This document shows positions 1 to 9,347 of a stretch of DNA of 32,000 nucleotides, one piece after another; positions within the stretch are counted from its first letter, which is position 1, and each line of letters starts with the position of its first letter. The position numbers and the translations under genes are program-made. Source of the stretch: Candidatus Heimdallarchaeota archaeon (GTDB lineage: Archaea > Asgardarchaeota > Heimdallarchaeia > Heimdallarchaeales > Kariarchaeaceae); the NCBI GenBank assembly GCA_030149205.1, contig JASBSB010000003.1:180001-212000 (forward strand). The letters are read 5' to 3'. The notes under the pieces were generated by a model. The model ran no database searches and was not told the origin of the DNA. It saw only the letters and a program-made list of their open reading frames with translations.

Positions 1-1382
1 ACTCCAAATTCTAAAGTTTTTAATGCAATTGCATCTTCAATCCCAGCACCCATAGGATGTCCGGTAAATCCTTTTGTGTTAGTTATAAAAATATTTTGAG
101 CATGATCCCCAAAAACGTGTCTTAAGGATTCGATCTCTGCAGCTGCACTACCACCTCTTGCGGGGGTGTAGGTCTCATGACTCATAAAAATACAAGACTC
201 AGAAATCTCTTCAGGAGTTAATGCGTGTTCTGCTGTTACTTTCTTAAAAAAGTACTCAAATTCAGAAGAGATATGAGTCACATCAAGCCTAGTTCCATGA
301 AATGCTGAGTTTGCATAGTGAGAGCTTAGGATTTGAGCTATAGGGGCAATGCCTCTTCTTTTAGCTTCTTCCTCGGTTTCAATTACCAAACCAACAGCAC
401 CCATTCCCACGATCATGCCATGCCTTCTCTCATCAAAAGGCAGTGCTGCTTTTGTAACGTCTCCCTCGGTTGTAGCTGCTCCAGAGGATAAAAATCCTGA
501 ACCTATCCAGGGGAACAGATGATCACTCGTGACATTGTCAGAACCAATAATTATTACTCGTTTACATCTCCCGTTTCGTATCCAGTCTTGAGCGATTCCA
601 ACAGCCTGAGTTGTGGATGCACACGCAGCATTCACCTGAGTGTTTGGACCTCTGGCTTTGATGAGTTGTGCAAATTGAGAATGACCCATTGATAAAATTC
701 TGAAGAGAAACTTTCGATTGAATATATACTCAGGTGTATTAGATTCAAGCTCTTCTAATATATTTTCAATGAATTCTATTATTCTCTCCTTGTCCTCAGA
801 ATCTTTTAGTTTTCGATGAATTTCAGAGTATATTATACGTGTTAATGTTTTTTCATCATCAGATTTTTTCCACTTGTAATACCGTGTGAGTTCATCTACC
901 AGACTATCAAACCCAGGAAATGCCGAAGCAAAAATTACGCCTGTATCATCTTGTAACTCTTTGGGTAATACCCAATCACCTGGGAGGTAACTTCCAGTTG
1001 TAGTTTTGACGTATTCTCTCTGAAGTGGGATGTAAGCATCCTTAAGGGCTTCAAGGCCTGCTGCAATCGCAAGTTTTGTTGATGAATCATAGGTTTCAAT
1101 TAATTTTTCTGCTAACTGAAATTCTGCCACTAAATCAAATTTTCCGGGTTGTGCAGCTAATTTAATGACATCAGACCGCTTGTTGATTTTGTCTAGGGTT
1201 GGGCTCCCCTTGTCTCTTTTTACTAATTTGACTATGTTTTTGTCAGTTTGTTCATCTAAAGCGACCTCTGATAATTGATCAATGAGGTTTTCTCCCCTAA
1301 ATATTCTTTGGATATTTTTTGAATCAAAGATTTCTTTGTATTTACCCGGAAGACCTACCCCTGTACCTGTAACTACAATATT
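1..1382 (-). other. Domain KS2: FabF/FabB-like ketosynthase fused in the same polypeptide (partial)
   Basis: NIVVTGTGVGLPG, RGPNTQVNAACAST, PFDERRHGMIVGMGA, SHETYT, TKGFTGHPMGAG; Cys-His-His intact. Confidence 0.85.
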
Positions 1383-4300
1383 ATCAAGGTTTATACCCAT
1401 TCGACTAATTTTATCTGAAAGCTTAAGGGAGGATTCTTGCTTAAACCTGTTAAAACTCTCTTCTACAAACTTGTTAAGTAAGTCACCTTGGAACTGCAAG
1501 TAAGACTTAAACATAGGGTCATATTTTGCATCTGCTGTGATATAATTATCTGAATTAAAACTGTGTTGAATTTCACCTTGAAACTCATCTTTGGTTAAGG
1601 CAGTACGAATTTGAGGTGAAATCTCCTTTACTTGAGGAGTTTTTGTAAATTTGTTGGAGTATGAAAAGTGGGATAATGTTGGTGTGGCTACCTTAACATC
1701 ATAAATACTCTTGTCAATCAAATTTCCTTCAATGGATGGCTTGATCACCATTTTCCCAGCAGCAAACAATCCGGCTAATGCCTCATTGAGTTGCTTGGTT
1801 TCTCCCTTCTTGGGATGAACTGTTATTAAAGTTAGTGAGTTCTCATCTGAAAGTATTGTTTCCACAAAGCTAGATAAAGCTCTTTTTGGTCCGACTTCAA
1901 CAAAGATTCTCCCACCATTTTTATATAAATTATTAATTTGTTGAACCCATTCTACCGCAGATTCAACTTGTTTCTCCAGTAGAGATCTTATCTTCTCAGG
2001 ATCCTCTGGAAATAATTCTCCTAACACATTTGAAGAGACAGGAATTGTTGGTTTATTAAAGGTAATTTGTCTTAAGAATTCTGCCAGTTCTTGTGCTGCT
2101 GGTGCTACAATCTCAGAATGAAATGCAGCAGAAACATTCAATTTTACACATGAAATACCATTTTCAGAGAACACTTTTATAGCCTTTTCAATTCCAACCG
2201 TTGAACCAGAGATTACTGTACTAGTAGTAGAATTTTTGTTTGCTGGAATTACGTAATCATCAATGGTCTTTAAAATTTCCTCGATTTTCTCATACGGAGC
2301 ATTAACAGAGGCCATGCTTCCCTTATCAGAGGCATCCACGTTAGCCATAGCTTTACCTCTTACTGCCACTGCCTTTAACGCATCAGAAAAACTCAGTACA
2401 TTAGCTGCAACTAAAGCTGCGTACTCTCCTAAAGAATGTCCAGCAACCATGTCAGGCTCAACACCGAGAGTTTGAAGCAACCTAAAGACAGCAATATCTG
2501 CCAATAGCATTGCAGGTTGTGTAAACTGAGTTTGTTTTAACTTCTCTTCCAATTCTTTTTCTTTCCCACTTTTAGAATAAATTATTCCTGAGAGAGGTTC
2601 ACCTAAAAACTCAAATAAAACTTCATCTGCCTCTGAGATCGTCTTCTTAACAATTGGAAATTTTGTAGATAGCTCTTTTAACATGTTAACATATTGTGAA
2701 CCTTGTCCTGGAAACATAAACACGGTTTTTCCTTCAGGTAACGTATCTGAATAAAATATTCCTCGCTTTTGATAGAAACTGAAATTTGAACTATCATCTA
2801 ACAGAGTTTGAACCATATCTAATTCTTTCTGCAATTCTTCTATATTTTTGGGAGCTAGTGCAACTCTTTCTTTGAACATGGGGTTAAAACTATCAGGCAA
2901 ATTCAGCAAAGAGTATCTAGAGTCTCGCTCATCAGGTATTGACTCCCTTATTTTGTTGACTTGGTTAATTAGTTCAGATTTAGTTTCTGCACTTAAAAAA
3001 ATAGGTTCTGAAGCAAATTCTGAGTCAACAAAAAATTCAATGACTTGGTCTTCATAGTCTTTGGTATTTTCAAAATCATATGAATAATTTGGATTGTATT
3101 CTTGCATTACCACGTGAAAGTTTGTTCCTCCAAATCCAAATGAAGAAACGCCAGCTGTTCTTAACCCTTCGCACTCCCATTTTTTTGTTTTGGTGTTTAC
3201 ATAAAAAGGACTTTTTTCCCAGTCAATGTTTGGATTTGGATTCTCAAAATTGATTGAAGGTGGTAATACTTTGTTGTAAATTGCCAGGGCAACTTTAATA
3301 ATGGCGGCTGCTCCAGCTGCACTCTTCAAGTGACCTATCTGACTTTTGATAGAACCTATGGGGATTGATGAAAGTTTAACATTGTCCTCCATAAACACCT
3401 TTGATATTGTATCTACTTCTACCACATCTCCCACCTTTGTGGAGGTTCCATGAGCTTCTATAAGTGAAATTTCATGTGGGCTTACTTTTCCCGCTTTCAA
3501 AGCCCTCCTGATTGCTAATTCTTGACCAATTGGGTTTGGTGCTGTGATCCCCTTACCCCTTCCATCAGAGGATGAGCCAACTCCACGTACCAGTGCATAA
3601 ATTTTGTCACCATGAGAAATGGCATCAGAAAGTCTTTTTAAGACAAAAAAACCAACTCCTTCACCCATTACAAATCCATTGGCTCTCTCATCAAATGGAT
3701 AGGAACCGTCTGGGGAAAGAGCACCGATCTTACAGAATTTAACATAAGTGCTGACATCCATTGACCTGTCTGCTCCCCCACAAAGAACCACATCAACCTC
3801 TTTGCTGATCAAACTTTTATATGCCTCGTCTATCGCAGCCATGGATGAGGCGCAAGCTGCATCTGTAGTTAAATTCTTGCCACGCAGATTAAATACATTA
3901 GCAATTCTTCCAGCAATAACATTTGCTAGCTCTCCAGGCATTGAATCTTCATTTATTTCTCTAAATCGAGATTTATATTGCTTTTCGAGGTTTTCTAACA
4001 ACAGTACCTGTTGTTCTGATTCTAGTTTTGAGAATTCTGGTGTCTCTCTTAGGGTCTCTACAACCTCAGGAAAATAAACTCTTCTTGTATATTCTCGAAC
4101 AACTTCACCTCCCATTGAATTTCCCAAAATAACAGCGGTGTTTTCTCTGTTAAAATTTTTATTCTCGTAATTTGCGTCCTCTAATGCCTCTTTTGCCGCT
4201 GTTAAAGCAAGCTGTTGCAGAGGATCAATTTGTTTGGCCATATTTGGAGGTATTCGAAAATTCAACCCATTAAATTCAAAATTTTTCACAAATCCTCCGA

Positions 4301-8342: not shown

Positions 8343-8396
8343 AATTGTTATAACAGAGTACCCTAAAAAAGGCTTCTCTTTGTCAATCAAACTGAT

Positions 8397-9347
8397 TTAA
8401 TCTTCTTTTCCCCATTCTATAGCCATTGTACCCATTGAAAAGCCCAAACTTGTCCCACTTACTATGACTTTAGACCCCGGCTGAATTAGTCCTGTCTCTA
8501 AGCCATAGTCGAGTTGATATAATAAATCATTGGTTCCCATATGAGGAACCTCTTTCAAACATGAGATTCCGGATTTCTCAATTGGAAAATTCATTTGATC
8601 AAGAACCATTTTTGAACTTGCATAATTAGAACAACTAATCGCAATAAAGTCAATATCCTTTGGATAGGTTTTCATGGCAAGACATGATTCTCTGAGGTGA
8701 GTCCCAAAAGTCTTAACCATATATTTGCTCAATTCCTTCCCCTTGTGTAAGTTGGCCAGATGATATTTTGCATCATCACCCAAAATAAACATATCTCGAA
8801 ACTCTGGATTGGTATTAACCTTTACATATCTGATCAAATTACCGTCTGTGTTTTTGGAGAACATAAAAGCTCCGATGGAATCTGCGAAGATACAATTTCC
8901 GTCAGAACAGTTATCAGTATATTGTGTTGTCATCTGAACAGCTCCAACCGCCACATGGTCAATATCATTCTGAGAGAAGTGAAGGCCAGCCAATTTCGCA
9001 GCAACAATGACAGAAGCACAACCCAGCGAAAAGTCAAAACCAAACCCTTCTGCTGAGGGAAAAGCACTCATAACCACAGGGCTGGCACCTTCAGGATGTG
9101 ACTTGTAGCCATTATGAATCCCTAAAAACACACTAAGCTTGTCTGGGTCTATTTTTGCCTTTTGTTGTGCAAGAATCACCTGTTTCACCAATCTATTTTC
9201 CCATTCAGATTCATCAGAATATACCCAAGTGCTATTAACTGGATTTCTTGATTTAACAAATTCAGGGAGGCCCAATGAGGAGATTTCCACCCTCTTGTCT
9301 CCCCTTTCGAAGCTCCAACCTGAAAGAGTTAAATCATTGAATTTCAT
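8397..9347 (-). CDS. Ketoacyl synthase III (FabH)-like thiolase-fold enzyme with atypical catalytic residues
   Basis: 316 aa. FDFSLGC110AS, IFADSIGA (FabH LFGDGAGA equivalent), C-terminal VIVSGTSLGFSMGTMAIEW. The FabH PHQAN motif is replaced by ISCSN and GNTS by PHMGTND. Confidence 0.75.
   Translation of the reverse strand: MKFNDLTLSGWSFERGDKRVEISSLGLPEFVKSRNPVNSTWVYSDESEWENRLVKQVILAQQKAKIDPDKLSVFLGIHNGYKSHPEGASPVVMSAFPSAEGFGFDFSLGCASVIVAAKLAGLHFSQNDIDHVAVGAVQMTTQYTDNCSDGNCIFADSIGAFMFSKNTDGNLIRYVKVNTNPEFRDMFILGDDAKYHLANLHKGKELSKYMVKTFGTHLRESCLAMKTYPKDIDFIAISCSNYASSKMVLDQMNFPIEKSGISCLKEVPHMGTNDLLYQLDYGLETGLIQPGSKVIVSGTSLGFSMGTMAIEWGKED

Follow-up and report, generated by a model that had tools for sequence, protein, structure and literature searches.

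The window analysed here is a stretch of 32,000 nucleotides (C7:180001-212000) from the genome of a Candidatus Heimdallarchaeota archaeon (G000), and its left end carries genes for a multidomain megasynthase, a three-subunit biotin-dependent carboxylase and a thiolase-fold enzyme that resembles 3-ketoacyl-acyl carrier protein synthase III (hereafter KAS-III-like). It is likely that the locus encodes a self-contained fatty-acyl synthase (type I and iterative) that belongs to the Type R Pfa-like family and is native to Heimdall-group Asgard archaea; its substrates and product are inferred, and so are the part played by the KAS-III-like enzyme and the destination of the chain. According to textbooks, archaea have isoprenoid-ether lipids and are without acyl carrier proteins (ACPs). 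A first-pass annotation of the window had proposed that the carboxylase and a ketosynthase/acyltransferase (KS/AT) megasynthase form an acyl-chain factory in an Asgard locus, and this central part of its reading is supported by the present analysis.

Architecture of the megasynthase and its cluster

The megasynthase is a single open reading frame (ORF) of 3281 aa without an internal stop (C7:174708-184553). The 5' 46% of the gene lies inside the window, and the fact that the gene runs off the window explains why it was missing from the ORF track, as had been remarked. Pfam searches with the whole protein and with pieces of it gave the domain order KS-AT-KS2-4xACP-KR-DH-PPTase, in which KR is a ketoreductase, DH a dehydratase and PPTase a phosphopantetheinyl transferase. 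The ACP, KR, DH and PPTase functions that the first-pass annotation had suggested might lie to the left of position 1 are all on the megasynthase itself, and an enoyl reductase (ER) candidate stands next door. The features of the locus are listed below in window positions or, where marked, in those of L003 (the extended locus, which includes the contig left of the window).

9400..10842, minus strand: rtcB, tRNA-splicing ligase, the upstream archaeal flank (PF01139, 555 bits)
8397..9347, minus strand: KAS-III-like thiolase-fold enzyme, 316 aa (PF08541 only, 40 bits)
6861..8390, minus strand: biotin carboxylase (BC) subunit (NF006367, 634.7 bits, cut-off 597; PF02786, PF00289, PF02785)
6286..6870, minus strand: biotin carboxyl carrier protein (BCCP; PF00364, 68 bits), with the EAMKM biotinyl-lysine motif at K155
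4644..6224, minus strand: carboxyltransferase (CT) of the PccB/MmdA type (PF01039, 631 bits; TIGR01117, 788 bits, under the cut-off of 999)
1..4553, minus strand: part of the megasynthase gene inside the window (full gene L003:4708-14553)
3066..4478, minus strand: KS1 domain, aa 26-496 (PF00109, PF02801, PF16197; motifs DAACASS, HGTST and KSQIGH)
1827..2723, minus strand: AT domain, aa 611-909 (PF00698, 163 bits; GHSLG with Ser707)
1..1391, minus strand: KS2, aa ~1055-1600, running off the window; FabF-like and divergent, with Cys1311-His1459-His1499
L003:7594-9300 (C7:177594-179300, left of the window): four ACPs with Thr sites T1783, T1886, T1992 and T2103 (PF00550, 110-123 bits together)
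aa 2423-2649: KR, with a YSAAN motif and a GGAQGI nucleotide-binding site
aa 2782-3039: polyketide synthase (PKS)-type DH (PS-DH), with His2793
aa ~3107-3260: Sfp-type PPTase (PF01648, 48 bits; PF17837), with motifs GFD and WSIKESAMK
L003:3924-4760, minus strand: FabI-like reductase, after the megasynthase gene (PF13561, 233 bits)
L003:3448-3927, plus strand: archease, beyond the FabI-like gene and on the strand opposite to the cluster

The five ORFs for the KAS-III-like enzyme, BC, BCCP, CT and megasynthase are co-directional on the minus strand; 6 bp separate the KAS-III-like and BC genes, 61 bp those for BCCP and CT, and 90 bp those for CT and the megasynthase, and the BC and BCCP genes overlap by 10 bp. 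The earlier description of five co-directional genes with gaps below 100 bp thus holds at its coordinates, and Pfam and NCBIfam agree on it. The rtcB gene lies 52 bp upstream of the KAS-III-like gene, and the whole cluster occupies 15.4 kb between rtcB and archease, in G000 as in a second genome of its genus, G001.

The megasynthase scores 1099.1 bits with the PfaA model TIGR02813, over the curated cut-off of 1010.1. The catalytic triad of KS1 is intact (Cys234, His368, His408), as is the Cys-His-His triad of KS2, and the motifs NAACAS, SHETYTP and NTKG(F/Y)TGH of KS2 are invariant in 12 Asgard sequences. Because Cys1311, His1459 and His1499 are retained, KS2 would be a second ketosynthase and not a chain-length factor (CLF), a role that the invariant triad rules out. 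The AT scores 232 bits with the FabD model TIGR00128, under the cut-off of 261, and carries an AAFH motif about 100 residues past Ser707. This motif resembles the malonyl signature and favours malonyl over methylmalonyl extender units, so that, of the two extenders offered originally, the malonyl one appears the better candidate and the methylmalonyl one is disfavoured. In a genome profile search, the only phosphopantetheine-binding and the only AT domains of G000 were those of the megasynthase; FabA/FabZ (PF07977) was not found at all, and a second KS-AT protein was not detected. The megasynthase is therefore the sole carrier-protein system of G000, and a type II fatty-acid synthase elsewhere in the genome was rejected, since the search found neither an ACP nor an AT nor FabA/Z outside the megasynthase.

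Within this context, a mechanism can be proposed. BC, BCCP and CT, all of which are present, with a BCCP that is biotinylatable at EAMKM, would carboxylate acetyl-CoA to malonyl-CoA, and the AT would put malonyl units on the four tandem carriers, which would be primed by the PPTase of the same polypeptide. Condensations would be divided between the two intact ketosynthases, KS1 and the FabF-like KS2. The KR and the PKS-type DH would then process each beta-keto group, while the FabI-like protein might reduce the enoyl intermediate in trans. The expected product is a largely saturated long acyl chain, saturated or nearly so because there is no isomerising DH of the FabA type.

Several points weigh against such a synthase. 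The DH motif is HxxxDxxxxP and not HxxxGxxxxP, and no thioesterase domain is present in the megasynthase. The specificity of the CT is not fixed by its sequence (acetyl- or propionyl-CoA), and the best equivalog score of the FabI-like protein is 240 bits against NCBIfam cut-offs of 391-441, its role thus being a predicted one. The literature yielded no product for any Type R cluster. Lastly, threonine stands where serine is expected in the carriers, so that their priming is a putative one.

This last feature is shared by nearly the whole family. All four carriers of G000 read LGIDTVK, with the threonine aligned with the phosphopantetheinylated serine of solved ACPs, and across ~100 loci (L005-L107) the family-wide carrier site (LG[IV]DTVK) has 296 threonines and 8 serines. 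To our knowledge, serine is the priming residue in every characterised ACP, and no report of carrier proteins with threonine in place of serine was found in the literature. In the two genomes of Heimdallarchaeum, two of the three carriers have serine. This interchange of threonine and serine, together with a dedicated PPTase that is always present, argues that the threonine site may act as a functional hydroxyl. It should be noted that two puzzles are posed for the large Type R family, namely the threonine at the priming site and the presence of two intact ketosynthases in one chain.

Relation to known synthases

The system is not of a new kind; it matches the Type R synthases, which are widespread in bacteria and also occur in Thermoplasmatota. 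Type R was defined by Shulse & Allen (2011, PLoS One 6:e20146) as a cluster with one pfaA homologue of the order KS-MAT-CLF-ACP(3-6)-KR (MAT being a malonyl-type AT) and a downstream PPTase gene (PMC3098273). Its hosts include Koribacter, Solibacter, Elusimicrobium and Roseiflexus, an acetyl-CoA carboxylase (ACC) gene is occasionally present, and the product is not known; the survey included no archaea and classed Type R as a secondary lipid synthase (PMC3098273). The G000 megasynthase has the matching order KS-AT-KS2-ACP-KR, with four ACPs, a dedicated PPTase and a carboxylase. However, its host is an Asgard archaeon, its PPTase is fused at the C-terminus and is not a separate gene, a PS-DH follows the KR, and the 'CLF' position keeps Cys-His-His and would thus be a second KS. 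In addition, a three-subunit carboxylase of archaeal style is present in every locus examined, and in the family of the window the FabI-like reductase is encoded in trans and an orphan KAS-III-like gene has been added. As judged from its domains, the enzyme appears to belong to the Type R Pfa-like family and not to be a categorically new system.

A scan with a KS2 pattern returned more than 596 relatives, and those inspected keep the order KS-AT-KS2-ACPn-KR(-DH) in Acidobacteriota, Chloroflexota, Myxococcota, Elusimicrobiota, Calditrichota, Actinomycetota and Thermoplasmatota. Identity between the KS2 of the window and relatives of the same order from Acidobacteriota, Chloroflexota, Elusimicrobiota and Myxococcota is 43-50%. 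In a quick, unrooted IQ-TREE tree of KS2 (94 rows, with the best 80 of the >596 matches as the bacterial sample), one side (SH-aLRT 98) is made up of 19 Asgard rows, a standalone paralogue from G000, an unclassified archaeon and L081, a long-branch sequence from Thermoplasmatales, and bacteria and the other Thermoplasmatota fall on the opposite side. When the Asgard rows were constrained to group without L081, the cost was 0.45 lnL units (p-AU 0.49), and this topology is not rejected. Metagenome-assembled genomes (MAGs) from Type R phyla (Bryobacteraceae, other Acidobacteriota, Elusimicrobiota and Chloroflexota) make up the sister side, in a set that does not contain the reference strains. A MAG labelled Promethearchaeota clusters with family f14, and because the branching departs from the family codes, transfers among Asgard lineages are possible. 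We make no claim about a donor, because the tree is unrooted and its bacterial sample is biased to the best matches.

The standalone KS2 paralogue of G000 is a protein of 496 aa (C8:519451-520941, L116:7451-8941, minus strand) with 43-49% identity, is kept in several genomes of the order, and adjoins genes for a pyridoxal phosphate-dependent acyltransferase of the BioF/Kbl family (TIGR01825, 562 bits) and an ABC-2 exporter.

With PfaA and the polyunsaturated fatty acid (PUFA) synthases (pfaABCDE of marine Gammaproteobacteria and thraustochytrid OrfA), the megasynthase shares the backbone of KS-MAT-tandem ACPs-KR-DH and a dedicated PPTase. The PfaD/FabK-type ER of PUFA synthases has a counterpart in other Asgard lineages but not in the family of the window. 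In contrast to PUFA synthases, the G000 system is without PfaB and without PfaC with its FabA-type DH/isomerase, has an extra internal KS, and reads LGIDT where they read LGIDS. Because PF07977 is absent from G000, there appears to be no obvious route to cis-polyunsaturation. The megasynthases of Thermoplasmatota differ in that their KS2 groups with bacteria and not with Asgard archaea, except for L081. A PKS of Heimdallarchaeota has been noted in passing, in an antiSMASH/NaPDoS analysis of one MAG in which the nearest KS matches were of the PUFA type (PMC7472256); beyond that study, literature searches gave nothing relevant on PfaA in Heimdallarchae* or on a PUFA synthase, megasynthase or ACP in Asgard archaea.

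Distribution in Asgard archaea and an exchange of enzymes

In a census with residues 1-1720 of the megasynthase as query (an even sample of the phylum, 301 Asgard genomes, E <= 1e-100), the megasynthase was found in 56 genomes. It is near-universal in the order of the window, which is that of Ca. Heimdallarchaeum (36 of 41 genomes, 13/13 genera, four families: f1, the family of the window, and f2-f4), and in f6, a second family of the same class (11/11). It is sporadic in f14 (5/68) and f27 (3/7), and under the same threshold it was not found in f5 (0/21) or f11 (0/76). All 12 Asgard loci examined, from at least 3 classes, keep the order KS-AT-KS2-ACPn-KR-DH-PPTase, and in all 12 the genes for CT, BC and BCCP are at most a few kb away, often with BirA, although their order and strand vary. 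The synteny that was to be looked for in other Asgard genomes thus recurs across Asgard lineages.

In Heimdallarchaeum, the megasynthase of G020 is 3515 aa long, and its extra ~700 N-terminal residues form an ER of the FabK/PfaD type (NMO, PF03060). The cluster, for which G020 and G015 are the examples, has the order BirA-PlsY-CT-megasynthase-hydrolase-BCCP, in which BirA is a BirA-like biotin ligase and the hydrolase is of the alpha/beta type, and BC is also among the neighbours. The ER module and the hydrolase, mostly with BirA, recur in loci of f2, f6, f14 and f27. Compared with Heimdallarchaeum, the cluster in the family of the window appears to be without three elements, namely the cis ER, the hydrolase and BirA, through loss, and to have gained the FabI-like and KAS-III-like genes, as the following counts illustrate.

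Cis ER module: f1 0/12, f2-f4 26/29
Cluster hydrolase: f1 1/12 (a weak match), f2-f4 24/29
FabI-like: f1 10/12, f2-f4 0/29
KAS-III-like: f1 10/12, f2-f4 0/29

From these complementary patterns it follows that the family of the window would have swapped a built-in reductase for a trans-acting FabI-like one, a swap that reads as a non-orthologous displacement, and would likewise have exchanged the cluster hydrolase for the KAS-III-like enzyme. The same complementarity to the cis ER module supports the predicted enoyl-reductase role of the FabI-like protein. As for the pfaD-like ER named in the first-pass annotation, it is present as a cis module in most other Asgard lineages but in none of the 12 genomes of the window's own family. 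What is new for the lineage is therefore a cluster without the cis FabK/PfaD-type module and the hydrolase and with a FabI-like enzyme and an orphan KAS-III-like one, and such an exchange of reductase and release enzyme within one archaeal order could serve as a clean natural experiment on modularity.

Ca. Heimdallarchaeum aukensis shows two further peculiarities. Its locus (G015, L022 = C1:478001-498000, at ~7100-11600) contains a tandem KS-AT duplication, giving KS-AT-KS-AT-KS2, and the megasynthase region, which in G020 is one intact gene, is broken into two open frames (1510 and 2729 aa). It also has two copies of the cluster hydrolase gene (C1:495573 and C1:498270), each 99% identical to that of G020.

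The KAS-III-like enzyme

The KAS-III-like enzyme had been read as the starter enzyme, and this part of the earlier proposal fails, because the triad is rewired and the protein is an orphan confined to one family, not a canonical FabH. With the NCBIfam FabH models it scores 34-54 bits against cut-offs of 249-315. Its AlphaFold2 model (pLDDT 88) has the FabH fold, with TM-scores of 0.81-0.85 at 13-18% identity to solved structures. Cys110 is kept, the position of the FabH histidine is taken by Ser238/Ser240, and that of the FabH asparagine lies inside an invariant PHMGxND motif. Among 5.8 billion proteins, 27 relatives were found, all of them at least 50% identical and all Heimdall orthologues. 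The enzyme also has weak sequence matches to CerJ and PqsC. For the same two reasons, a canonical role in starter condensation is unlikely.

CerJ, DpsC and PqsC are KAS-III-like acyltransferases and offer an analogy of function. With these proteins (3s3l, 6esz), the enzyme shares the thiolase/FabH fold, a nucleophile that is kept and decarboxylation residues that are replaced, but its identity to any solved protein of the FabH fold is 13-18% and it is confined to one Heimdall family. By this analogy, its probable function is acyl transfer, either to prime the chain or to off-load it. That it might be a split-off piece of the N-terminal extension found in other lineages is ruled out, there being no similarity. 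In G000 the KAS-III-like gene runs in the same direction as the carboxylase genes, but in G001, G002 and G003, the remaining three genomes of the genus, it lies on the strand opposite to the megasynthase, and a small inversion (L018:2338-3276 compared with window 8397-9347) sets G000 apart from the rest of the genus.

Alternative explanations and the fate of the chain

G000 is a MAG-like assembly of 12 contigs (3.31 Mb, 35% GC, 93.5% complete), and the genes have their nearest characterised relatives in bacteria, so that a bacterial PKS fragment misjoined to archaeal DNA during assembly or binning has to be considered. We regard such an artefact as vanishingly improbable. The cluster lies ~174 kb into a contig of 473.7 kb with even GC, and its own GC is like that of its surroundings; the independent assembly G001 has identical flanks (rtcB and archease), which speaks against a chimeric join at 9347; and the megasynthase is present in two closed Heimdallarchaeum chromosomes (G015, Ca. 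Heimdallarchaeum aukensis PM71, of the same order, and G020) and the Asgard copies group together in the KS2 tree. The flanks in G001, the long contig and the sister genomes (among them G002, a deposited Candidatus Heimdallarchaeota archaeon MAG of the same genus) rule out a chimeric join or a bacterial contig for practical purposes, and the locus is native to Heimdall-group Asgard archaea. In G004, from another genus of the same family, archease and rtcB are convergent and 57 bp apart and the megasynthase cluster lies elsewhere, which suggests that the 15.4-kb cluster moved into the archease-rtcB spacer in the genus of the window. A further alternative concerns the carboxylase, which might be an enzyme of central metabolism, either a propionyl-/acetyl-CoA carboxylase that fixes carbon or serves the use of propionate, or else a decarboxylase, with no more than its position to link it to the megasynthase. 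Its CT is of the PccB/MmdA type with methylmalonyl-CoA decarboxylase alpha as the best model (788 bits, below the cut-off), and such BC/BCCP/CT operons serve CO2-fixation cycles in archaea. Nonetheless, we consider this reading improbable, given that CT, BC and BCCP flank the megasynthase in 12/12 Asgard loci despite rearrangement, often with BirA, and that a CT paralogue (56% identity) on C4 and a second BC-like gene elsewhere in G000 could serve other duties. Bacterial Type R clusters, too, recruit ACC genes (PMC3098273). The substrate of a carboxylase that feeds the megasynthase would presumably be acetyl-CoA, with malonyl-CoA as the product.

Two fates of the acyl chain made by the proposed synthase can be weighed against each other. 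The chain might enter bulk membrane phospholipids, with PlsY and PlsC esterifying acyl groups to glycerol phosphate and giving bacterial/eukaryote-like or mixed membranes, or it might end up in a specialised 'secondary' lipid or in a polyketide that has been reduced, for example as the tail of a glycolipid, as the precursor of a hydrocarbon or in a lipid for signalling or protection, a role presumed for bacterial Pfa-like clusters. For the former, G000 encodes PlsY (C4:501845-502432, 146 bits) and three PlsC-type acyltransferases (PF01553) and has no other fatty-acid synthase; PlsY occurs in 52/56 megasynthase-positive and 64/245 negative Asgard genomes and in every genome of the families in which the megasynthase is near-universal; and the cluster of Heimdallarchaeum itself includes a PlsY paralogue, with BirA and CT as its neighbours. 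Bacterial PlsY and PlsC also accept glycerol 1-phosphate as well as glycerol 3-phosphate (PMC13400652). However, PlsY is common in Asgard archaea without the megasynthase, the association is confounded by shared ancestry, and the adjacency is confined to one genus. In G000, at 93.5% completeness, there is no match to PlsX (PF02504) and hence no known route from acyl-ACP to acyl-phosphate, so that of the acyltransferases that were to be looked for PlsY and PlsC are present and PlsX was not found. There is likewise no clear GpsA in G000, and the genome keeps a gene of the glycerol-1-phosphate dehydrogenase family and mevalonate-pathway genes for archaeal lipids, with a weak match to geranylgeranylglyceryl phosphate synthase. 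The sole Asgard culture with lipid data had archaeal lipids only, according to the passage of PMC13400652 that cites it. Altogether, a bulk membrane role is rather unlikely. A secondary lipid is at least as likely, although we would place it somewhat below even chances: Type R counts among the secondary lipid synthases and has no known product (PMC3098273), the megasynthase is patchy in the phylum (f11 0/76, f5 0/21, f14 5/68), the variation in release enzymes (hydrolase or KAS-III-like) suggests lineage-specific end products, and one PlsC-type gene stands beside a GT4 glycosyltransferase gene. On the other hand, the system is near-universal and apparently vertical in a whole order and has its own carboxylase, which resembles core metabolism, and the full reducing set predicts a plain saturated chain.

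That Asgard archaea encode PlsY and PlsC has been known since 2017-2019, and a membrane role was judged unlikely without PlsX/PlsB and evidence from cultures (PMC6431249, PMC6737245); the lack of a source of acyl donors was a further reason for discounting these enzymes (PMC6431249). A 2026 study remarks that lipidomic work on Asgard archaea may have failed to pick up ester lipids (PMC13400652). The present locus could be the missing source of acyl donors, one that is order-wide, self-priming, carboxylase-fed and contained in a 15.4-kb fragment that can be expressed heterologously, and the question of Asgard fatty acids thereby becomes experimentally tractable. Among Asgard archaea, it is to the class Heimdallarchaeia that the closest known eukaryote relatives belong, and the origin of the bacterial-type fatty-acid ester lipids of eukaryotes is a standing problem of eukaryogenesis. 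It is a doubtful proposition that Heimdallarchaeia make fatty acyl chains de novo on threonine-linked phosphopantetheine carriers and then esterify them to glycerol phosphate via PlsY and PlsC. Were it true, the membranes of archaea near the eukaryotic stem would already have contained fatty-acid ester lipids, or a mixture, without any contribution from the mitochondrial ancestor. The bearing on the archaeal-to-eukaryotic lipid transition that had been suggested for the locus was overstated, in that no tie specific to the fatty-acid synthesis of eukaryotes, or to their synthase, was found.

Acyltransferase genes and other neighbours

The PlsY gene of G000 is convergent with, and slightly overlaps, a gene for a 299-aa alpha/beta hydrolase (PF12146; L117:4233-6468 = C4:500233-502468) that is not an orthologue of the cluster hydrolase, and a tRNA-splicing endonuclease gene adjoins them. 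The PlsC-type gene mentioned above lies between the GT4 glycosyltransferase gene and one for an enoyl-CoA hydratase (G000:C4:523270-525999, L027:258-2987), a neighbourhood that hints at an acylated glycolipid or acyl-CoA metabolism. In family f6, 4-11 PlsY paralogues are present per genome (G146, G198, G206, G234, G239, G261, G279 and G291), compared with 1-3 in other Asgard families.

Elsewhere in the window, the archaeal context that had been described is confirmed: besides rtcB, there are genes for ribosomal proteins of archaeal and eukaryotic type (S28e, L7Ae and S2), mevalonate kinase, isopentenyl-phosphate kinase and a Ras-family GTPase (155 bits). Directly upstream of rtcB (window 10982-21972), three paralogous genes for family-5 solute-binding proteins (758, 711 and 682 aa) are interleaved with two ABC permease genes, and in each solute-binding protein ~300 N-terminal residues are unassigned.

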